Shown: positions 28,501 through 64,000, counted from the stretch's first letter. The stretch is DNA of 64,000 bases from an uncultured Phycisphaerales bacterium (GCA_963758525.1 CAVWVQ010000003.1:4416001-4480000); one strand, 5' to 3'. A program made the numbers and translations. The notes: generated from the sequence alone by a model not told the origin.

Positions 28501-28753
28501 CCTCACCGGCGGCATCTATTCACGTAGTCCTGCCAACATCGAGAAAGCCCGCCGCGAATTTCGCGTCGGCAATCTCTACATCAATCGCAAGATCACCGGC
28601 GCGCTCGTCGATCGCCAGCCCTTCGGCGGCTTCAAACTCTCCGGCGGCGCCACCAAAGCCGGCGGCTCCGATTACCTCCTCAATTTCCTGCTCACCCGCA
28701 CCATCACCGAAAACACTCTCCGACACGGTTTCGCGCCCGCCGAGGCCACGTAA
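25562..28753 (+). CDS. putA: Bifunctional proline dehydrogenase / P5C dehydrogenase with 67-codon insertion
   Basis: VDLLGE, RLVKGAYWD, EFQMLYGM, YLVRRLLEN, PWNFP, EMGGKN, AGQKCSA, EEIFGP, QPFGG. Confidence 0.95.
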   Translation: MHWDDAHLEERTKEIGKAIFARVKAADGHSLAGWWQRHTMGWGMHDERVKAQLFRFVDVLPTLATPELIAGHLREYLIPVRDRLPGPAALVMNWLPTDGWTSRRVADAAKLAAESMARHFIAAADLEEAIQSVAKLRQHSLGFTVDLLGEAVLSRVEAERYRETYLRMIDGLADAAAEWTRNPLLDSDGNGRPVPRVNVSVKLSSLFSQFDPIDPHGTSSAVCERLRPILRLARRRGVFVNIDMEQYSYKDITLQIFRGILDESEFRDWPDVGIAIQAYLRDCGDDLARLADWAGRRGTPVWVRLVKGAYWDYETIVAAQNGWNIPVFAHKHETDANYEKQTAFLIEHHEQLRPAIGSHNIRSIARALALTEAHGLPPRSIEFQMLYGMADPVKSALVKMGHRVRVYAPVGELLPGMAYLVRRLLENTSNESFLRAGFLDHVPEERLLMNPALTSPPTVARPQDTSPAPQLPAFHNEPLTDFSRAAEREKMRAALDAVRSQFSAIAPARALSSSPGTPAFGSEAQARRGEGRGGGGVELPEDGPHSVPPQDYQGRGIETQTPPIAQSQFGNSHPLIIGGKTITRNETIESFDPSHRRTLVGRTARATADDARLAVTAATDAFPAWRDAGVKRRAELLMACARILRRRRFELSAWEIVETGKQWREADADVAEAIDYCSFYANEAVRLAEPQRRDVPGEENRTFYEPRGVAVVIAPWNFPLAILCGMTAAALATGNTVVMKPAEQSPIIGAKLMEVFIEAGLPAGVVNYLPGLGEEVGPALVNHPDVAVIAFTGSRAVGLQIQADAARVPAGQQHLKKVITEMGGKNALIIDEDADLDEAVHGVVASAFGYAGQKCSACSRAIVLASVHDAFLTRLVEATRSLKIGPAEDPSCSVGPVIEEDARRRILQAVEKGKSEARLVYCADVSALADEGWYVGPHIFADVPEGASIAQEEIFGPVLTVIKAANLDDALRIANGTPYALTGGIYSRSPANIEKARREFRVGNLYINRKITGALVDRQPFGGFKLSGGATKAGGSDYLLNFLLTRTITENTLRHGFAPAEAT
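27059..27268. mobile_element. In-frame MITE/REP-like insertion in putA
   Basis: 9-bp direct repeats agccagttc (27059, 27260), inner IR gcgcaattg/caattgcgc, core related to the repeat at 13148. Confidence 0.65.
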
Positions 28754-29560
28754 CACGGGTTCCCAACCCGTGCGAACATGCCCCGAAGTAACACGGGTTT
28801 CCAACCCGTGCGAACAGCGCCCCGAAGTAACACGGGTTTCCAACCCGTGCGAGCAGCGCCCCGAAGTAACACGGGTTTCCAACCCGTGCGAGCAGCGCCC
28901 CGAAGTAACACGGGTTTCCAACCCGTGCGAACATGCCCCGAAGTAACACGGGTTTCCAACCCGTGCGAACATGCCCCGAAGTAACACGGGTTTCCAACCC
29001 GTGCGAACATGCCCCGAAGTAACACGGGTTTCCAACCCGTGCGAACATGCCCCGAAGCAACACGGGTTTCCAACCCGTGCGAACATGCCCCGAAGTAACA
29101 CGGGTTTCCAACCCGTGCGAACATGCCCCGAAGTAACACGGGTTTCTAACCCGTGCGAACATGCCCCGAAGTAACACGGGTTTCCAACCCGTGCGAACAG
29201 CGCCCCGAAGTAACACGGGTTTCCAACCCGTGCGAGCAGTGCCCCGAAGTAACACGGGTTTCCAACCCGTGCGAGCAGCGCCCCGAAGTAACACGGGTTT
29301 CCAACCCGTGCGAGCAGCGCCCCGAAGTAACACGGGTTTCCAACCCGTGCGAGCAGCGCCCCGAAGTAACACGGATTTCCAACCCGTGCGGGCGGCGCCC
29401 CGAAGTAACACGGGTTTCCAACCCGTGCGAACAGCGCCCCGAAGTAACACGGGTTTCCAACCCGTGCGAGCAGTGCCCCGAAGTAACACGGGTTTCCAAC
29501 CCGTGCGAGCAGCGCCCCGAAGTAACACGGGTTTCCAACCCGTGCGGGCGGCGCCAGAAG
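28750..29560. repeat. Tandem array of 21 palindromic 38/39-bp units
   Basis: GTAACACGGGTTTCCAACCCGTGCG-(AACATG|AACAGCG|AGCAGCG|AGCAGTG|GGCGGCG)-CCCCGAA; counted by hand. Confidence 0.92.
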
Positions 29561-44070: not shown

Positions 44071-44428
44071 TAGCTTCTCCTCTTCGGTCCCTTCAAACGA
44101 TGCCGGGTCATCGAAGGGCATGAATGTTCGCGAGAACGTGCCCGGCCAAATGCGGGGACAAGTCCCGTTCGCCTTGTCGCACACGATGAGGATGTGTCTC
44201 ACGAGTGCTTTTCCGAGATATGTGCTGACTGATTTCGGCCGCTGCTGACTAATGTCAATTCCGACTTCCGCCATCACCTTGACGGCAAGCGGATGAATCT
44301 CGGGGCGTGGCTCCATTCCCGCACTATGCGGGTCAAATTTATCGGGCTGATAGTGCCGCAAAAAACCTTCCGCCATCTGACTTCGGCGGGAGTTCCCGGT
44401 GCAAAGTATGAGAACTATGGGTTTTCGG

Positions 44429-54947: not shown

Positions 54948-55202
54948 ATGATGGTCATGGTGAAGAAGCTGGGCGGCAGCGTTGCCGTTGTCATCCCCAG
55001 GGCATTGGCGCGCGAGATGGAACTGGTTGAAGGGACTCCGCTGGACATCAGCGTCGACGCCGCGGGCATTGTCCTGAGGAAGCAAGGGCGTCGGCCGCGG
55101 CGCTCGTTGCGCGGGATCGTGGCGCGGATCGACCCGAAGAGCTACCGCCGTCACAGTCGCGAGCTGTCGGAAGACCGGCCTGTCGGAAGGGAGATCTGGT
55201 GA
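54948..55202 (+). CDS. mazE: AbrB/MazE-family antitoxin
   Basis: VKKLGGSVAVVIP..GREIW; overlaps toxin start. Confidence 0.85.
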   Translation: MMVMVKKLGGSVAVVIPRALAREMELVEGTPLDISVDAAGIVLRKQGRRPRRSLRGIVARIDPKSYRRHSRELSEDRPVGREIW

Positions 55203-55555
55203 GCAAGCGAACCTACCATCCCGATCGCGGCGATTTGATCGAAATGAACTTCCAACCCGCGGCCGGCCGCGAGATCGACAAGCGACGTCCCGCCGTCATC
55301 CTCAGCCCCGTGACGTACAACCGTCGCTCGGGCATCTGTCTCGCCGTGCCCACCACCACCGACTTGACGCCTGGCCCGCTCTGGCTGCCGATGCCCGCCG
55401 GTTACCTCGCTTCGCCGAGTCTCATTCTTTGCGACTACGTCAAGAGCTTTGACTACCGTGAGCGATCCGCATCTTTCATAAACCGGCTGCCTCTTGAACT
55501 GGTCGAGCAGATCATCAGCAACATTCTGGACCTGATCGACCCGGCCTCGGTATAG
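55199..55555 (+). CDS. mazF: MazF/PemK endoribonuclease toxin
   Basis: PDRGDLIEMNFQPAAGREIDKRRPAVILSP..YN..VPTT. Confidence 0.9.
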   Translation: MSKRTYHPDRGDLIEMNFQPAAGREIDKRRPAVILSPVTYNRRSGICLAVPTTTDLTPGPLWLPMPAGYLASPSLILCDYVKSFDYRERSASFINRLPLELVEQIISNILDLIDPASV

Positions 55556-55642
55556 TCGATCCCTGACTGTCGCGGCATGGGCCCGGCCGCGACGATAGCG
55601 CGCAAAAGAAAAGAGGCGCTCGTTTGCACGAGCGCCTCTGAC

Positions 55643-56770
55643 TCACTCCTTATTGGCAACCAGCCCGCGGATCTGCTCCGTCAGATCCCCGTTGCCGAAG
55701 ACGAACGTCGCCTTGGTGCCGGCGAGGACTTCCTTCAGCATTTCCAGCTCCTTGAGCCGGGCAAGCTGCGGACTCTCCGCCAGCAGCTTCGCCGTGTTGG
55801 CCTGGCTGCGGGCGGCGGCGGTCTCTTCACGCCGCTTGATCAGGTTCGCCTCGGCTTCCTTCGTCGCTGCGATCACCTGGTTCAAGAGCGTCTTCATGTC
55901 GCCCGGCAGGATGATGTCCCGCAAGCCGACACTCTTCACCGCCACGCCGATTGCCTCGGCGCGCGCGGCCAATGCCTGACGCACTTCCGCACCGACCGCT
56001 TCCTTGTCGCCGAGCAGCGCATCGAGCGTCTTGGTCCCGACGGCCGCCCGGAGAACCAGCTGCGCTTCGCGGTAGAGCGCCTGCGCGTAATCGCCGACGC
56101 TCGTCACGGCCTTCACGGCATCCGTAACGACCCAGGTCACCAGCAGGTTCACGCGGAGCGTGACCTTATCACTGGTCATGATTTCCTGGCCCGCGACGTC
56201 GGCGACCTGCTCCCGGCGGTCGATCGTCTTCCAGGTCACCTTGCCGGTGCCCTTCCAGAAAACGTGCAACCCGCCAGCGAGCCGATCGACGAGAATGCCG
56301 TCGCGGTAGAGAAGCACATCCTCTTCCGCGCTGACCATGACCCCGTCGAACCACTTGGTCGCATCCGGCGACGCCAGGATCGTCTGGAGCTTGGCGTGCT
56401 CGAAGCGGAACGATTCGATCGAAAACGTCTCGACGTTCAGCTTCGCGGCCGTCTTCCAAAACGCGTAGCGCCCGGGTCCGAGGATCGCGAACAGCCGGTC
56501 ATCCTTCCAGACGACCGCCCGCTCCCCGTCGGCCAGGTCCACGACCTGCAGTGCCTCGCGGAGCTGCGCGTTCACGAGCAGCACCTCAAGCAGTGCATGC
56601 TCGAAGCGGGTCTTGAGCGTGTCGGCGATCTCGACCTTGTCCCCGTTTACTCCACGGCCCAGGCCGAGCAACCACCGCGACTTGACGTGGGCGCCGGGCA
56701 TGAGCAATTCCGCGAAGTCTCCATCACGGAACCACAGTCCACGCTCGTGCTGACGAATGCGAATCTTCAC
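55643..56770 (-). CDS. SPFH/Band-7 'slipin'-type protein
   Basis: Repeated ERGL/ERAV-x-DG..L.PG.Y.FW units, then GQEIMTSDKVTLRVN, LRDIILPG, RREETAAARSQANTAKL; GAGGTG RBS before GTG. Confidence 0.85.
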   Translation of the reverse strand: MKIRIRQHERGLWFRDGDFAELLMPGAHVKSRWLLGLGRGVNGDKVEIADTLKTRFEHALLEVLLVNAQLREALQVVDLADGERAVVWKDDRLFAILGPGRYAFWKTAAKLNVETFSIESFRFEHAKLQTILASPDATKWFDGVMVSAEEDVLLYRDGILVDRLAGGLHVFWKGTGKVTWKTIDRREQVADVAGQEIMTSDKVTLRVNLLVTWVVTDAVKAVTSVGDYAQALYREAQLVLRAAVGTKTLDALLGDKEAVGAEVRQALAARAEAIGVAVKSVGLRDIILPGDMKTLLNQVIAATKEAEANLIKRREETAAARSQANTAKLLAESPQLARLKELEMLKEVLAGTKATFVFGNGDLTEQIRGLVANKE

Positions 56771-56779
56771 GATGCACCT

Positions 56780-57166
56780 CTCTTTCATTCCTTCTGCAGC
56801 CGCCTTTGGCGGATTCACCCAGCCGCGGCCTCGCCGATCGCGGCACCATTTCGAACCTCTTCCGTCCAAACACCGTTGCTCAAACAACACAGGCCGAAGC
56901 CCGGCCCGCCCGTGCGCCCGCCGATCCGGCGGGATCGAGTTTCGACGCGGTTCGTCGCGAAGATCGAACCGGCGCACGCCACCCTTCGTGCAACCGGTCT
57001 TGTTCCATGGCGACGACGCCGCGGCAAACTTCCTCGACCGCAAGCCATCAACGGCGTCGCGGATGCCGCAGGAACCAACCGCCGAAGCGGTCAATTCGCC
57101 ACGATCATCCGCCGGCGTCCGTGCGGGCCGGGGTCTTCGAACCTGTTCAGTTACGCTTCGCAGCGT
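56780..57166 (-). ncRNA. Putative structured RNA upstream of slipin
   Basis: Multiple GC hairpins, two TTCG tetraloops, three GGTTCGA motifs. Confidence 0.45.
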
Positions 57167-57238
57167 TGTTAGTGACGGGAGTCGAACCCGCTACCGCAAG
57201 GTTATGAGCCTTGTGCTCTTCCAATGAGCTACACTGGT
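57167..57238 (-). ncRNA. tRNA-like RNA, CAT anticodon, defective acceptor stem
   Basis: ACCAGTG TA GCTC ATTGGAA GAGC A CAAGG CTCATAA CCTTG CGGTA GCGGG TTCGACT CCCGT CACTAAC A. Confidence 0.75.
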
Positions 57239-57363
57239 GGTCTTCATTCATGGCGTTTCGATGCCGTTCGCGGAACGCGCGCAGGGAATCTCCCAGGCGG
57301 GCCGCCGGCCGCCCTCAAACGAAGTCGATCGATGCCCCGGCACACGCCGGCGCATCATGTATC

Positions 57364-57401
57364 AAAACAAAGAACCCCGGAGGGAAACGCCTCCGGGGTT
57401 C
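57364..57401 (-). terminator. Intrinsic terminator / attenuator
   Basis: GAACCCCGGAGG-CGTTTC-CCTCCGGGGTTC followed by TTTGTTTT. Confidence 0.85.
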
Positions 57402-57425
57402 GGTGATTGCAGTATATGAATCAAC

Positions 57426-57536
57426 CTATCGCGGAGGACATCTCCCAATGATGTACAGTCCATTGGCGTATGGCATCACGCCGCCGGCTGCTGATCGGAG
57501 TTCCGATTCAAATTGTGATTTCGTCCACGCGTTCAC
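57426..57536 (-). CDS. Putative leader peptide (36 aa) ending GRCPPR
   Basis: GGAGA RBS + GTG; lies between promoter and terminator. Confidence 0.6.
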   Translation of the reverse strand: MNAWTKSQFESELRSAAGGVMPYANGLYIIGRCPPR

Positions 57537-57562
57537 GAGTATCTCCAATAACTGAGGCGGGA

Positions 57563-57590
57563 AACATAACTCAGAAAATAAAGATGTCAA
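57563..57590 (-). promoter_or_regulatory. Sigma70 promoter
   Basis: TTGACA-16-TATGTT in an AT-rich patch. Confidence 0.65.
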
Positions 57591-57658: not shown

Positions 57659-58624
57659 TCACGGTGTCACGTGCATACCGTCCCGGGCAAAACGCACCGG
57701 ACCGTCGAAATTGCGGCGGATCGACGCTAGAACGGCCACGTGCGCCTCGTCGATCGTTGGATTCAAATGCGTGAGCAACAACGCGCCGACATGTGCCCCC
57801 GCTGCAACTTCCCCTATTTTCTTCGGCGGCGTGTGCAAGGCATATAGAATTGCCGGTGAGCCCGGCGGATCCAGCACAACGGTATTGAAAACCAGCAGAT
57901 CGCAATGATCGGCGATGACGCGAAGATTTTCCAAACCGGTCGCATCGATGTCGCCGGAAAACACCACGCTACGGCCTTTATAGTCGACGCGATAAATGAC
58001 GGCCGGGGCGTCGAAATGATGGCCCGCGATCGCCTCGATCCGCAGTCCATTCTCTGCCAGCAATGTCTGCGGCCGAGCGCCCGGCTGCAGTCGGGCATCC
58101 ACATCCGTTGCAGCGATCGTCAGCGGCGCGGAGAAATCAGCAAGATACGCAAACGCGCCCTGCTTGCCGAAGAGCAAATCTATGAACCGTTTTGTCGATG
58201 GAAACTCAGCAGCGCCGCTGGGGCCGAACACCTGAAAATCGATTGGACCTCGGGTAGCGACTACGCGCGCCTTGAATATTCCCGGCAATTCGCTGGCATG
58301 ATCGATATGCAGATGCGTGAGCAGAACCAGGTCGAGGTGATCGAGCGAAACATTGGCTTCACCAAGCCGGGCGAACGCACCCGAGCCCGCGTCAATGAGA
58401 ATTCTCGGCGAGCCGTCGAGCGAAAGAACAAAGCAGGTCGACGCGCGACCGACGGCGCCAGGGCCGCCCGAACCCAAGACGATCAGATCGAGTATTGCTG
58501 GCCGCGATTCGGCCAAGGGCGTTCCTGAGCGTGCATTTGCGGGTGAGTGCTCGGCTGGCGCGCACCCGGTTCCGATCATGAGGCACAGCACCGCGATCCT
58601 TGTGCAAATCCGCGGGACTAACAT
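57659..58624 (-). CDS. MBL-fold metallo-hydrolase (RNase Z/arylsulfatase-like), probable lipoprotein
   Basis: LGSGGP, IDAGSG, THLHIDH, FSGD, LHT, LTHL; N-terminal GTGC. Confidence 0.85.
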   Translation of the reverse strand: MLVPRICTRIAVLCLMIGTGCAPAEHSPANARSGTPLAESRPAILDLIVLGSGGPGAVGRASTCFVLSLDGSPRILIDAGSGAFARLGEANVSLDHLDLVLLTHLHIDHASELPGIFKARVVATRGPIDFQVFGPSGAAEFPSTKRFIDLLFGKQGAFAYLADFSAPLTIAATDVDARLQPGARPQTLLAENGLRIEAIAGHHFDAPAVIYRVDYKGRSVVFSGDIDATGLENLRVIADHCDLLVFNTVVLDPPGSPAILYALHTPPKKIGEVAAGAHVGALLLTHLNPTIDEAHVAVLASIRRNFDGPVRFARDGMHVTP

Positions 58625-59496: not shown

Positions 59497-61857
59497 TTAT
59501 TTCAGGTTAAATTCAATTTGTTTTGCGCGATTGATAGACATGTGCAGTGTTGCGTCGCGAAGTTCCGGCCGGGAGACGAGGAATTTTGCCAGAGGGGTCA
59601 CGACGAGCGTTTCGATGGCGCGCTGCAGCGGGCGAGCGCCGTAGCGGTGATCGTAGCCGGCGATACACAGCTTTTTGCAGACGTCGTCGGTCCAGCTCAA
59701 GCGGATGTTGCTGGCTCGCAGCCCTTCGCGCTGGCCGAGCTTTTTCAGCTCTGCTTCGGTGATCCCGCGGATGGTCGACTCGCTGAGCGGAGCGAACGTG
59801 ACGACGGCGTCGATGCGGTTGAAAAATTCCGGGCGGAAAAAGCTCATCGCCTCGCTGTCGTAGTCGCTGGCCGGCGCGGTTGAAAGTCCGAACGACTCCA
59901 TGCGGTCGGCGCCGAGATTCGACGTCATGATCATCAGCGCGCTGCGGAAGGTCGTGAGCCGCCCGAAACGGTCAGTGAGGCGTCCTTCGTCAAAGACGCC
60001 CAACAAGAGATCAAACACTGCGGGGGCGGCTTTTTCGATTTCATCCAGCAGCACCACCGTGAAGGGTTGCTCGCGGAGGCGTTTGATCAGTTCCGACGGC
60101 TCGCCACCGGGCGGGCCGATCAATCGTTCGGCCGCCCCCGGGCCGGCGAATTCGCTCATGTCGAGCCGGAGCATGCGCTCGCTTTTCTTGCCCATCGCCC
60201 CGAGCTGATCCTCACCTTGCCCGAAGAGAAAATCGGCGATCGTGCGTGCCAGCTCAGTTTTGCCGACGCCGGTTGGACCGCAGAACAGCAGCACGCCAAG
60301 CGGACGCCGCGGGTCGTTCAAGCCGGCCTTGAACGTGGTGATGACCCCCGCGGCGGCGGCGTACGCGGTCTCCTGTCCCATCACTTTCGCACGAAGCGCC
60401 GCCACAACGTCTTCAACTTTCAGCGGCAGTTCGTCGCGCAGAAAAAGCTCGGGCAGGCCGGTGAGCTTGATGAAGCGATTGATCACACTTTGGGAAGTTA
60501 CGATTCCTTTTGTGCCATCAGTTGCATGATGTTCGATGTCGGCGCGGTCCTTTGTGCTGCGGGCGGCAGTCGCGGCGCGTGACGTGCGGTCGAACAAATC
60601 GCGCAAAAACCCCGCGGCGCAGCCGGGGAAACTCTGGTACGGCATGAACCGCGCGAAGAGGCGATAGATCTGGGGAATGGCATCGCGCGCGTAATCGATC
60701 TTGAGATTTTGCTTCGCGACTGCGGCGAGTTGATCGAGGGCGGCAATCGCCTGCGAGGCATTGAACGGGGGGATTTCCACGATGGAGAAGCTTGCCGCGA
60801 AGCTCGGGAGCAATCGCCGGCAGGCGTCGAGCTCGGCGATGGTGGCTTCCCCGACGACCCGCATCTCGCCGCGCTGCAGGTATGGGACCAGGAACGCGGC
60901 GACGCTGTCGCTGGGCGAAGAGCCGCCGGTGCGAACAAGCTCCAGCAGGTTATCGACGCAGAGAATACCTTCTATATCGGAGAGCTTCTCGATGACCTCT
61001 TCGATGCGCTCCTGCCATTGTCCCAGATATTTCATCCCCGCGATGAGCCTGGCCGCGCTGCTCAACCAGAATCGGCTGCGCACGTGCGCGGTGTTTGCGG
61101 CATCGGGATCATCCGATTCCAACCCGTCGCGCTCCAATTTGCGCGCCGCTTCGGCCAACACCGTCGTTCTGCCAGACCCGTTTTCCCCCAGCAGCAGCAC
61201 GCTGGATCGCGAGCGGCCGAGAATGTCGACGAGCCTTGCCACTTGCGCATTGCGCTGCCACGGCCGCGAAAGACGCCGCCGCGTGCCGCGACTGCCCAAC
61301 GGTTCGGCAATGAGCGGCAGCGGATCGAGATCGGGCGGAACCTCGCGCTCCGATGCTCCCGACGGAATATGCACCGTGGCATCGTCCAAGTGCACGTCTG
61401 CCGGCGGCAAATAGCGCGACAACTCGCGCGGACTTTTTCCCTTCATCGCAGCCTGTATGTAGTGCGGCGCCAGGCCCTGCAGATCGGCCTCATCGTCGTA
61501 GGTAAATCGCACGCCGATGGTGGGCATTGAGCAGAGATACAACTGCGAGCGATCTCGTCCCAGCACCGACGGAACCCGCAGCGTGATCGTCTGCTTCAGC
61601 GAAAAGACTCGATCCTCCGTCTTATATTCCGGGCGAACGTCTGCCATCAGCCAGACAAGCTTTGGCTCGTTGAAATTGGGGCGGGAGAGCGCCTGGCCTC
61701 GTTTCATCCGCCATTGCAGAAGCTCCTTGATCTGCCCTGCGACATCGGCGCCGGTAATGCCGACGGTGGCAATGTCGTTAGGATCTTCCACCAGGCAGCC
61801 GGTGCAGCCACCGCCGGAATGCTGCCAGATGAGAATGGGATATCGGTAAGTCGGCAT
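59497..61857 (-). CDS. ClpA/ClpB-like AAA+ ATPase with atypical N-terminus
   Basis: Module 1 GENGSGRT/CVDN (degenerate); module 2 GPTGVGKT, LLDEIEKA, TSN, FRPEFFNRID, YGARPL. Confidence 0.88.
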   Translation of the reverse strand: MPTYRYPILIWQHSGGGCTGCLVEDPNDIATVGITGADVAGQIKELLQWRMKRGQALSRPNFNEPKLVWLMADVRPEYKTEDRVFSLKQTITLRVPSVLGRDRSQLYLCSMPTIGVRFTYDDEADLQGLAPHYIQAAMKGKSPRELSRYLPPADVHLDDATVHIPSGASEREVPPDLDPLPLIAEPLGSRGTRRRLSRPWQRNAQVARLVDILGRSRSSVLLLGENGSGRTTVLAEAARKLERDGLESDDPDAANTAHVRSRFWLSSAARLIAGMKYLGQWQERIEEVIEKLSDIEGILCVDNLLELVRTGGSSPSDSVAAFLVPYLQRGEMRVVGEATIAELDACRRLLPSFAASFSIVEIPPFNASQAIAALDQLAAVAKQNLKIDYARDAIPQIYRLFARFMPYQSFPGCAAGFLRDLFDRTSRAATAARSTKDRADIEHHATDGTKGIVTSQSVINRFIKLTGLPELFLRDELPLKVEDVVAALRAKVMGQETAYAAAAGVITTFKAGLNDPRRPLGVLLFCGPTGVGKTELARTIADFLFGQGEDQLGAMGKKSERMLRLDMSEFAGPGAAERLIGPPGGEPSELIKRLREQPFTVVLLDEIEKAAPAVFDLLLGVFDEGRLTDRFGRLTTFRSALMIMTSNLGADRMESFGLSTAPASDYDSEAMSFFRPEFFNRIDAVVTFAPLSESTIRGITEAELKKLGQREGLRASNIRLSWTDDVCKKLCIAGYDHRYGARPLQRAIETLVVTPLAKFLVSRPELRDATLHMSINRAKQIEFNLK

Positions 61858-61860
61858 TGG

Positions 61861-64000
61861 CTACTGCTTCGGGCTTGCGGAAAAGTCCTGCGGTATCGGA
61901 AGCTGCGCGAATATGAGTTTGCGAAGTTCGACGGCGCGTGGCAAACCGCGCATCGACATGCCGGTGCGAAGATCGACGGTGACGTTCGCAGGGTCGTAGG
62001 TTCGCACGATCGGGTTGAGCGGAAATGGATTGGGTGTGTCCGCGTCGCGTTGGATCGATGCGCGCCAGGCGAGATCGCGAGCGCGAAGTTCTCGCAGGAC
62101 GGCGTGGGCATCGGCATGGCCAAGGGGTATCACAGTCACCTGAACGACGATCACCTGCTGGCGTTCGCCGATAAACAGATGCGTGCCTTGTTCGCTGGCC
62201 ATCACGATGGCAATGCCGGGCATTTCCATGACGATCGCGTGTTCGCGACAAGCGGCAGGATCCGGCGCGTGAATCTCGCCCGTGATCCTTGCTGCGGGCG
62301 TCTGCTTGGCGGAAGTTGTCTGCGTGGAGCGTTTCGATTTGGATGCTTTCGTTGCGGTCTTGTTGGGCGTGCCATCATGGGCGGATGAATGCGAAGCAAG
62401 ATCGGACGCCACGAATCCGTATCCCGGGAGGAACAACTGGTGATAAATTCCGGCAAGCGCTTTGAACTGCTCGGCGGCGCTGGGGTTGGGGGTGCGCATC
62501 CAGACAAGGCAGCGGTCTGATGCGGGATCGCTCGTGGCGATCACTTCAAGCAGGGACACCTCGTGGATGAGTTCGGCCAGTCGATCTTCCAAGATGTGTT
62601 CGTCGGCGCTTTGCGGGTCGCCGAAGGTGTGCCCATCGGGCTCGAGCGCATGAAGCTGCGCTTCGGTATCCGCTGAGGCGCGAAGGCCGGCGCGGTTATC
62701 TCCGTCGGAGAGGGCGCGCAATTTCTTGCCCGAGCGTGGGGCGCGAATTGGGGGGCGAAAGGCGATGGTCTTTTTTGGCGCAGCGGCGAGTCGATCGATG
62801 CTGGCAATGAACCTGCGGATGTGGTCCGCGTATTCGCGCGCTGCCAGGTAGCGAAACTGCGCGGAGGATACTTCCCCCTGTTTCAGCGCAGGCAGGCTTT
62901 GTGAAGCGGCTGCGTTTTGTTCGAAGCGATGGATCGCCAGCTCCGCCCGGTCCAGTACGTCTGCCCAGTCGGTCAGATCAATCGTCACCGGCTTCAGCGA
63001 GCGTCGCTGGGCGTTTACCAGCGTCTCAACGCGCACCGCAATTCCCGAGTGTGCGGGATAGAGGTGAATCACGGCCGGAGCATCGGGCGCAGCCCCGGCA
63101 AGGTGAGCGGCGACGGGGCCGGTCAGTTGCCGCTCGATTGCGCGTTTCAGCGCCCTGCGCCGAGTTGCGGGTGATACCCCTCATCAACGACCTTCTCCAG
63201 CGCCGCGGGATCGACTGACATCACGCTACGGCGATGCGCCAGCCCATCACGACGCAGGATGTCGCCGATCAACCGCTCGGCGATTTCCCCGATCTGCCGG
63301 CGCGTAAGCCGCTCGAACGGAACGATACGGTCGATGCGGTTGACGAATTCGGGGCGAAAGAAATTCTCCGCGGCGCCGATATACGACTGGCGGTCGGACT
63401 GCCCGGCAGGACGAAGACCGAAGTGGGCGCCGGCCTGGCGCGCACCGAGGTTAGACGTCATAATGATGATCGCATTGCCAAAATCCGCGGTACGGCCCAG
63501 CGCATCGGTCAGGCGGCCTTCGCCGAGCACCTGCAACAGCAGGTCAAACACCGCCGGGTGCGCCTTGTCAATCTCATCGAGCAGCACCACTGAAAACGGC
63601 TGGCGGCGAACCGCGGCAGTCAATAAACCGTCGGGGTCAGACGATGTCCCGTTCAATCGCGCGGCGGCGTAACCGTCAGGAAACTCGTTCATGTCGAAAC
63701 GCAGCAGGCGCGTTTCATCGCCGAAGAGATATTCAGCCAGCGCCTTGCGCACTGAGTTTTGCCCACGCCCGTTGGGCCCAAAAACAGAAACGCCGCCAAC
63801 GGCCGGCCCGGATCGTTCAAGCGCGCTTTGGCGATGACGACGGCATCAGCGATCGCGTCCAGCGCCTCGGTTTGTCCGGTAACGTGCGCCGAAAGCGCCG
63901 TGATGACTTCTTCCCGGGGCAGGCGATTGCGATCGTCGAGAAACTGCAGCGACAGCCCGCTGCGGCTTCGGATTTCACTGAGCACCTCCTGGCGGCCGAT
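61861..64000 (-). CDS. Second ClpA/ClpB-like AAA+ ATPase with long C-terminal extension (partial; frameshifts near 63750 and 63156)
   Basis: GPTGVGKT, LLDEIDKA, FRPEFVNRID, LGA[R]ALKRAIE across three ORFs. Confidence 0.8.

Follow-up and report, generated by a model that had tools for sequence, protein, structure and literature searches.

A putative translation-gauging attenuator preceding a tRNA-like RNA and a slipin gene in an uncultured Phycisphaerales bacterium

Introduction

Burroughs and Aravind predicted a tRNA-like RNA (b7a-tRNA) together with a Band-7 protein beside RtcB and, according to a later paper that describes it, this has stood since 2016 as a prediction not validated experimentally (bioRxiv 10.1101/312249). 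RtcR is reported to sense cut tRNAs (PMC7790460), and an SPFH gene lies in the rtc locus of P. aeruginosa (PMC13086221). In Anabaena, the translation-stress repressor TrcR controls a slipin gene together with rtcB and a tRNA array (PMC10272220, PMC8421152), and the slipin gene was derepressed 42-fold together with rtcB in the mutant of this repressor (PMC10272220). In Actinobacteria, efficient translation of the upstream open reading frame (uORF) of whiB7/wblC leads to termination, and inefficient translation leads to an antiterminator (bioRxiv 10.1101/2023.06.02.543512). Here we analyse a stretch of 64,000 nucleotides (nt), the window, from an uncultured Phycisphaerales bacterium (GCA_963758525.1 CAVWVQ010000003.1:4416001-4480000; coordinates are counted from the window's first letter), whose minus strand carries in this order a promoter, a uORF, a terminator, a tRNA-like RNA, a strongly folded stretch and an SPFH gene of the slipin type.

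We propose that these elements form a small operon in which a leader attenuator that gauges the ribosome would release a long tRNA-containing RNA and a slipin, likely an RtcB-type repair accessory, when translation falters, a reading that we consider rather probable. All the elements had been listed in an earlier note on this DNA and every one of them is present, the uORF starting with GTG and not with ATG. The same note predicted a translation-sensing attenuator heading a tRNA-mimic and slipin unit tied to RNA repair, and the conservation of uORF, terminator and tRNA-like fold among homologous loci speaks for this prediction.

Results

Leader conservation

The leader begins with a sigma70-type promoter (TTGACA-16-TATGTT, 57590-57563, minus strand as all features of the unit; 10/12 consensus positions) that predicts a transcription start near 57556. 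It is followed by a ribosome-binding site (GGAG, 57546-57543) and a 36-codon uORF (57536-57426, GTG to TAG) whose C-terminus reads R-C-P-P-R-stop. The stem of an intrinsic terminator (57364..57401) starts 24 nt after the uORF stop; it has 12 bp (57401-57372, nine of them GC pairs) and continues into the U tract TTTGTTTT. The 3' end of the uORF (57422..57445) would act as an antiterminator strand, as its core CCTCCG (57437-57432), formed by the Pro-Pro codons, is complementary to CGGAGG at 57395-57390, within the 5' arm of the terminator.

To compare homologues, 72 slipin loci from GTDB contigs and 24 from 301 genomes of the class were sampled, and 92 remained once four duplicates were taken out; these loci, numbered here with an L, span Planctomycetota, Acidobacteriota, Desulfobacterota, Lentisphaerota, Bacteroidota and Clostridia. 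Leader counts refer to the 80 loci with at least 700 nt upstream, the 12 shorter ones being left out. A head terminator was found in 34 of the 80, and the layout of promoter, uORF, terminator, tRNA-like RNA and slipin recurs across phyla. This order of elements is above chance, as identical order and spacing are seen in dozens of loci from several phyla. Two of the 34 (L064 and L067) were removed because their terminators follow long genes, which left 32 leaders for analysis, and three more loci (L008, L010 and L055) have leader-like hairpins that the terminator scan missed and stand outside the 34.

Head terminators were picked without regard to open reading frames (ORFs), and 31 stop codons fell in the bin 22-32 nt before the stem, versus 4-14 in each of eight other 11-nt bins. 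Moreover, a sigma70-like promoter was present 144-327 nt upstream in 25/32 homologous leaders and in 1/32 control stretches, and the best promoter-like site between the terminator and the slipin gene reached only 6/12, which gives no good internal promoter of the kind that the earlier note had said would count against its reading. The predicted uORF peptides, mostly of ~20-60 residues, are mutually unrelated in sequence. The leader is thus conserved in its predicted geometry, that is in the position of the stop, and not in its peptide, so that of the features expected to be shared among homologues the uORF, the terminator and the tRNA-like fold were found, while the peptide, including its R-x-P-P end, was not. 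Unrelated peptides fit a general gauge of translation.

Pairing between the uORF end and the terminator arm is also a feature of the homologues. The cognate duplex had a mean of -17.0 kcal/mol over the 32 leaders, compared with -10.9 kcal/mol for upstream windows of the same loci (cognate lower in 31/32), -13.1 kcal/mol for arms taken from other loci (cognate lower in 26/32) and -11.6 kcal/mol for 140 terminators of this genome. Furthermore, the two strands change together: CCTCCG/CGGAGG in the window is replaced by GAACTCCG/CGGAGTTC in L008, by TCTCCGGG/CCCGGAGA in L006 and by CCGTCTTC/GAAGACGG in L012. The unit is real and conserved, and it is probably functional.

A folding model of the switch

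In the folding model, the window's nascent transcript had its 5' arm exposed, and the ribosome footprint was assumed to run from -12 to +17. In this model, the antiterminator that had been sought in the leader was found between the uORF 3' end and the terminator 5' arm, with a probability of ~1 in free RNA or with a ribosome at codons 1-28, and of 0 with a ribosome at codons 29-37, a stretch that takes in Pro-Pro and the stop. When the transcript is three bases short of the end of the stem, free RNA prefers the antiterminator and ribosome-covered RNA forms the terminator. Since the Pro-Pro codons are the antiterminator strand, a ribosome placed there favours OFF, and the trigger is likely inverted with respect to the earlier note, as a ribosome that reaches Pro-Pro means healthy translation and an operon that is off.

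The mechanism that we propose would run as follows. RNA polymerase would start near 57556, and a ribosome keeping pace with it would reach the last ~8 codons and cover the antiterminator strand, so that the 12-bp terminator could form and transcription would stop at ~57365 (OFF). If the ribosome did not load, or stalled before codon ~29 (possibly because of antibiotics, of cut or uncharged tRNA, or of damaged ribosomes), the uORF end would capture the emerging 5' arm and the polymerase would read through (ON). OFF might be made tighter by the terminal Pro-Pro, if it holds the ribosome over the antiterminator. We consider the attenuator as drawn here to be at least as probable as the operon reading as a whole and perhaps slightly more so.

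An RNA with a tRNA-like part between two further domains

Read-through RNA is predicted to fold into three parts, of which the first is a conserved 5' domain that we call motif A (57244..57320), an 11-pair bulged helix with a variable hairpin cap and no Rfam match. Its 11 pairs were 96.7% paired over 39 sequences, 9/11 of them with changes on both sides, and its covariation was above all 500 shuffles and all slid controls. The motif A model gave 65 matches in 85 sources, 39 of them training sequences; the window copy scores 53 bits and is itself a member of the training set. When 151 genomes of the class were scanned, with 29 candidates scored per genome, motif A matched in 11 (7 of these 11 being in the training set), once in each and always 0.5-0.9 kb before slipin on the same strand.

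The second part is a pseudo-tRNA similar to b7a-tRNA (57167..57238), with intact D, anticodon and T arms, a CAU anticodon, an acceptor reduced to a 4-bp base (pairs 1-3 are broken) and no CCA; it scores 51.4 bits with the Rfam tRNA model. Pseudo-tRNAs were parsed in 52 of the 65 motif A loci, and their acceptor positions 1-2 are paired in 18/52, positions 5-7 in 50-51/52. At least six acceptor pairs are found in 20/52 pseudo-tRNAs versus 28/30 genome tRNAs (30 parsed of 82), in which every acceptor position is paired in 29 or 30. The anticodons also vary, with 22 different ones among 39 seven-base loops, and 13 loops have other sizes. The short acceptor and the variable anticodon make it unlikely that the pseudo-tRNA decodes, and an identity as functional tRNA-Met/Ile2 was rejected on the same two grounds, 4 bp here against a 7-bp acceptor and an anticodon that changes among homologues. 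Extra T-loop-like fragments follow the pseudo-tRNA in the window.

Downstream of the tRNA-like part, GGATACCG occurs in 31/65 loci versus 0.2 in shuffles, and its pairing partner, a CTCAAG-CTCCG block, follows at a distance of ~90-135 nt; in 30 sequences, strong covariation is seen at several pairs of this 3' domain (one of them is 14 GC, 13 AU and 2 CG). In the window the corresponding region is 56916..57092, where diverged counterparts of blocks B (~57092-57052) and C (~56946-56916) were placed by eye, and a weaker hairpin with a U-rich tail (56889..56909) may be the 3' end of the RNA, homologues being often U-rich after block C. The conserved RNA blocks end ~70-230 nt or more before the slipin start codon, often with a U-rich tail. 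The pseudo-tRNA lies 396 nt from the SPFH gene, and the region 56770-57370 folds strongly (z = -5.8 versus 20 shuffles). We read motif A, the pseudo-tRNA and the 3' domain as one predicted RNA of ~450-500 nt, of which the tRNA-like part had been noticed earlier and the conserved domains flanking it had not. In Rfam searches of the window and of two homologues with better-kept 3' domains, tRNA was the only match, the weak His_leader and miRNA matches being generic hairpins. Pairing of the two ends of the RNA was good in L025, L066, L068 and L071, not generally, and we do not claim it. In L005, L011 and L076 the RNA and slipin are separated by an inserted protein of ~110-130 aa, which matches nothing in Pfam or NCBIfam and lies about 100-700 nt before slipin.

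The slipin

The slipin gene (56770-55643, GTG to TGA, ribosome-binding site GAGAGG at 56782-56777) encodes a 375-aa SPFH protein and is followed by a predicted operon-closing terminator (55612..55639). The protein matches Pfam Band_7 (PF01145, E 8e-26), and its nearest named relatives belong to Phycisphaerae and Tepidisphaeraceae, with 68-71% identity. The AlphaFold2 model (mean pLDDT 86.6; 52 sequences, with L035 left out of the alignment) has three short beta repeats, the SPFH domain and a long helix; its best structural matches are stomatins, HflK and prohibitins, with a stomatin-type fold at Z 18.9, root-mean-square deviation (rmsd) 1.0 and 104 residues aligned. Hydropathy predicted no membrane helix, and the slipin likely forms a soluble ring or cage, by analogy with its family. 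The N-terminal repeats weakly resemble the first SPFH subdomain (Z 5.4, rmsd 2.0, 43 aligned), and an MVP repeat only at Z 3.4. We do not claim a vault-like shell, as the Foldseek matches of the whole model to MVP are owed to the SPFH domain and the N-terminal repeats on their own showed no preference for MVP. Slipin is patchily distributed (24/301 genomes of the class).

RNA-repair neighbourhood and interchangeable heads

Neighbouring ORFs of the slipin homologues were clustered and one representative of each of eight clusters was annotated. The commonest neighbours are rtcB (22/92 loci), rtcR (15/92) and rtcA (14/92), and no TROVE gene was among the recurrent neighbours annotated. Other slipin modules follow rtcA or close tRNA arrays, the longest of which count 24 tRNAs, and the attenuator heads some of these arrays (L009, L027, L048 and L068). 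A divergent rtcR was found in 14/80 loci, 12 of them with a sigma54-like site, and none of the 34 terminator-headed loci has such a site or overlaps with the 14 rtcR-headed ones (Fisher p 2e-4, or 2e-3 if L055, which may carry both heads, is counted as both; kinship among the loci overstates these values). The attenuator would do for the slipin unit here the job that RtcR appears to do for it in other bacteria. That it is confined to genomes lacking RtcR was ruled out, as RtcR is present elsewhere in 2/10 attenuator-headed genomes checked. RtcR, TrcR and the attenuator are three unrelated controls that point to one condition, failing translation, and this is the strongest point in favour of the switch as well as of the module's role.

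With 6.47 Mb at 90.9% completeness, the genome of this bacterium carries a single slipin gene and a single rtcB, the latter ~870 kb from the slipin unit on the same contig and behind another tRNA cluster; RtcR, RtcA and TROVE were not found in it at this completeness. As had been noted before, no rtcB, rtcR or TROVE is seen in the window, and none is among the neighbour genes scanned. The suggestion of a stand-alone system drawn from this holds at the locus only, given the rtcB elsewhere in the genome and the loci in which rtcB adjoins slipin. A genome-wide scan for more leaders of exactly this type returned amino-acid attenuators and gene-end terminators, and none of those inspected heads RNA-repair genes.

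A second type of leader stands before three tRNA clusters of this genome, one of which ends in rtcB and another of which is a 15-tRNA array. In this type CTCCYCGCC comes immediately after a stop codon; then follow a hairpin GGCCGGGAGTTCTTCCCGG, which has no U tract right after it, and a downstream complement similar to CCGGGAAG. The copies are at C3:3599838-3599870 (+), 3763788-3763821 (+) and 44264-44297 (-), and sites of this type lie in L019 near 1497 and 5772; a search of 250 other genomes of the phylum did not recover the exact pattern. The tRNA cluster before rtcB opens with a tRNA-like element (C3:3599999-3600072) that has a GAU anticodon and no canonical T loop and is not called by ARAGORN. 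We have also seen an HNH endonuclease gene inside the tRNA arrays upstream of the module in L025, L032, L037, L047, L066 and L068, as is described for cyanobacterial L-arrays. In the clostridial slipin-rtcB loci L062, L064 and L067, which lack motif A, the preceding gene matches a WYL domain weakly and might encode a fourth regulator.

Other features of the window

An intact mazE-mazF pair (54948-55555, +) converges on the slipin terminator, and a gene of RNase Z-like metallo-beta-lactamase fold with an N-terminal signal-like stretch (57659-58624, -) lies just upstream of the promoter; neither is a recurrent neighbour in homologous loci and neither is counted as part of the unit. Further away (59497-64000, -) there is a run of large ClpA/ClpB-like AAA+ ATPase reading frames with a 403-aa ORF between them. 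Five tRNA-Ser calls by ARAGORN (28750-29546) find no support in Rfam and are artefacts that arise from a tandem repeat of 39 bp (20.6 copies, 96% matches); the same repeat unit is also found beside rtcB and near the tRNA array, which makes it a genome-wide REP-like repeat.

Discussion

The attenuator reading has several points against it. Even with no ribosome, the full-length equilibrium favours the terminator by ~5 kcal/mol, so that ON needs co-transcriptional trapping of the antiterminator. The cognate arm ranked as the best partner in only 5/32 leaders, many arms being alike; the uORF starts of homologues are predicted, some of them doubtful, and the L020 leader has no stop in range. The loci are related and not independent, which overstates the p-values. 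With respect to the RNA, one of the four helices drawn for the 3' domain is only 52.8% paired, and the 3' profile does not match the window copy, where by eye the outer blocks survive and the core is altered; what speaks for a 3' domain in the window is hence its reading by eye, the profile search being negative. Among terminator-headed loci 12/34 retain the canonical 3' core, versus 11/14 rtcR-headed ones, which may be a sign of decay. As for the tie to RNA repair, RtcB is common anyway (24/24 slipin genomes versus 22/30 others), which makes co-occurrence weak evidence. Finally, one soil metatranscriptome gave low-depth contigs of relatives over parts of the RNA and slipin and none over the leader; such contigs cannot show transcript ends or level and are evidence in neither direction.

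The earlier note took arrest of the ribosome at R-C-P-P, in the manner of RAPP, as the ON signal. Arrest motifs of the R-x-P-P form are real (PMC12992588), and Pro-Pro is found near the C-terminus in 11/32 leaders, with differing codons in some, so that the peptide may be under selection. However, Arg stands two residues before Pro-Pro in only 2 of these 11, and the remaining 21/32 leaders have no terminal Pro-Pro, most of them with spacing and pairing kept. The residues reported to support arrest at x are Gly, Ala, Ser and Pro (partly Asp), and RCPP is absent from the main text of that paper, while the window has Arg-Cys-Pro-Pro; a RAPP/RGPP arrest peptide, with a conserved Arg-(Ala/Gly/Ser/Pro/Asp)-Pro-Pro near its C-terminus, was accordingly discarded. 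A ribosome at codon 29 or beyond also blocks the antiterminator in the folding model and gives OFF. We find arrest as the ON signal very improbable. Scarcely more credible is that the leader is an attenuator specific for one amino acid, or that it simply encodes a small protein, ends in a terminator of its own and has no relation to the unit downstream. A short ORF with a terminator is also the look of biosynthetic attenuators, of which this genome has Trp- and Leu-rich examples, but the pooled leaders have no run of a single residue, their peptides are unconserved, the pairing partner changes with the terminator and there is no good internal promoter.

A different possibility grants the attenuator and takes the long RNA as a cis-acting leader of the slipin mRNA, for its processing or the control of its translation, and not as a free partner. 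This would agree with motif A being found only directly upstream of slipin, once per genome and on the same strand, and with end-to-end pairing that could close a free RNA in only some loci. On the other hand, the conserved blocks stop well before the start codon, in three loci a further gene intervenes between the RNA and slipin, and tRNA elbows are typical of processed or protein-bound RNAs; we regard a cis-acting role as unlikely. It is also conceivable that the unit in this genome is the decaying remnant of a stress-induced tRNA array, in which the switch may work and the function of the RNA is lost. Homologous modules do lie at the tail of long tRNA arrays, the 3' core of the window copy is mutated, T-loop-like fragments follow its pseudo-tRNA, and slipin is patchy in the class. 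Nevertheless, motif A of the window still reaches its 53 bits, as a training-set member, the slipin gene keeps an intact frame with 69% identity to relatives, and a short acceptor is usual throughout the family and no local decay, which leaves a remnant rather unlikely, and partial decay of the RNA in this copy equally so.

Under the operon reading that we prefer, the read-through RNA, with its motif A, its tRNA elbow of short acceptor and free anticodon and its 3' domain, would most likely bind slipin oligomers and serve RNA repair as a tRNA-shaped scaffold that does not decode or as a decoy for nucleases, comparable to the Ro60-Y RNA pair. This is the weakest step of our proposal, and we put forward an RNA-slipin complex as a possibility on the doubtful side. 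More tentatively still, an uncatalogued ~500-nt RNA and a soluble stomatin-like cage might form a repair ribonucleoprotein, an SPFH counterpart of Ro60-Y RNA, whose RtcR/sigma54 or uORF-attenuator heads are swapped across phyla, and in this genome uORF leaders might also head rtcB and the spare-tRNA arrays and so make up a translation-stress regulon that needs no transcription factor. Two unrelated sensors, RtcR, which binds damaged tRNA, and a ribosome-paced attenuator, before the same module point to its job, recovery from translation damage. The proposal predicts ways to turn the unit on, translation inhibitors or a single change of start codon, and provides a delimited RNA whose covarying domains can be expressed and their structure solved; L048, Singulisphaera sp. 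PoT, is a cultured carrier.

Comparison with known systems

The b7a-tRNA module is alike in having a Band-7/SPFH gene preceded by a tRNA-like noncoding RNA and, across homologues, rtcB, rtcA and rtcR as the commonest neighbours. It differs in that here rtcB is not adjacent, a uORF attenuator heads the unit and the tRNA-like part lies between two further RNA domains; this comparison follows the description in the citing paper, and the 2016 original may already mention flanking structure. The Anabaena L-arrays and TrcR regulon (PMC8421152, PMC10272220), as far as described there, share the induction of tRNA arrays, rtcB and a slipin gene by translation stress, and many homologous modules lie in L-arrays, whereas control in Anabaena is by a DNA-binding repressor and no tRNA array is left at the window locus.

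The RtcR/sigma54 rtcBA operons and rsr-yrlBA-rtcBA with its Y RNAs (PMC7790460, PMC4201824) likewise join a tRNA-mimic RNA and an accessory protein in an RNA-repair setting, and 14 homologous slipin loci are under a divergent rtcR. In contrast to these operons, no TROVE, RtcR or RtcA was found in the present genome as far as it is complete. An identity with YrlA or with Y RNA-Ro60 was rejected: YrlA is described with a permuted T-acceptor-D order (PMC4201824), the RNA here has the normal D-anticodon-T order and no YrlA match in Rfam, and Ro60/TROVE was found neither at the locus nor in the genome. GOLLD and ROOL (PMC12990946) are also described as large structured RNAs of tRNA arrays, sometimes with an embedded tRNA, but the slipin-unit RNA is strictly linked to slipin and three loci gave no match to either; GOLLD (RF02032) was found in 0/5 carrier genomes at E up to 1.

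The switch is closest to the whiB7/wblC leader, which in its description has a long, sequence-diverse uORF and the same ON/OFF logic that we predict here. The leader has the fixed short distance from stop to terminator and an antiterminator that overlaps the uORF end and excludes the terminator, as computed and with kinetic trapping required; it differs in belonging to other phyla, in preceding an RNA and a slipin instead of a transcription factor, and in showing no alanine enrichment (10% Ala). In the open-access literature we found no attenuator described for slipin, rtcB or tRNA arrays and no extra RNA domains, the 2016 b7a-tRNA paper, which may cover part of this, being outside the comparison. 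While the combination and the RNA domains were not found described, both halves of the unit have precedents: it is a known kind of RNA-repair accessory, a Band-7 protein with a tRNA mimic, under a known kind of switch, similar to that of whiB7.

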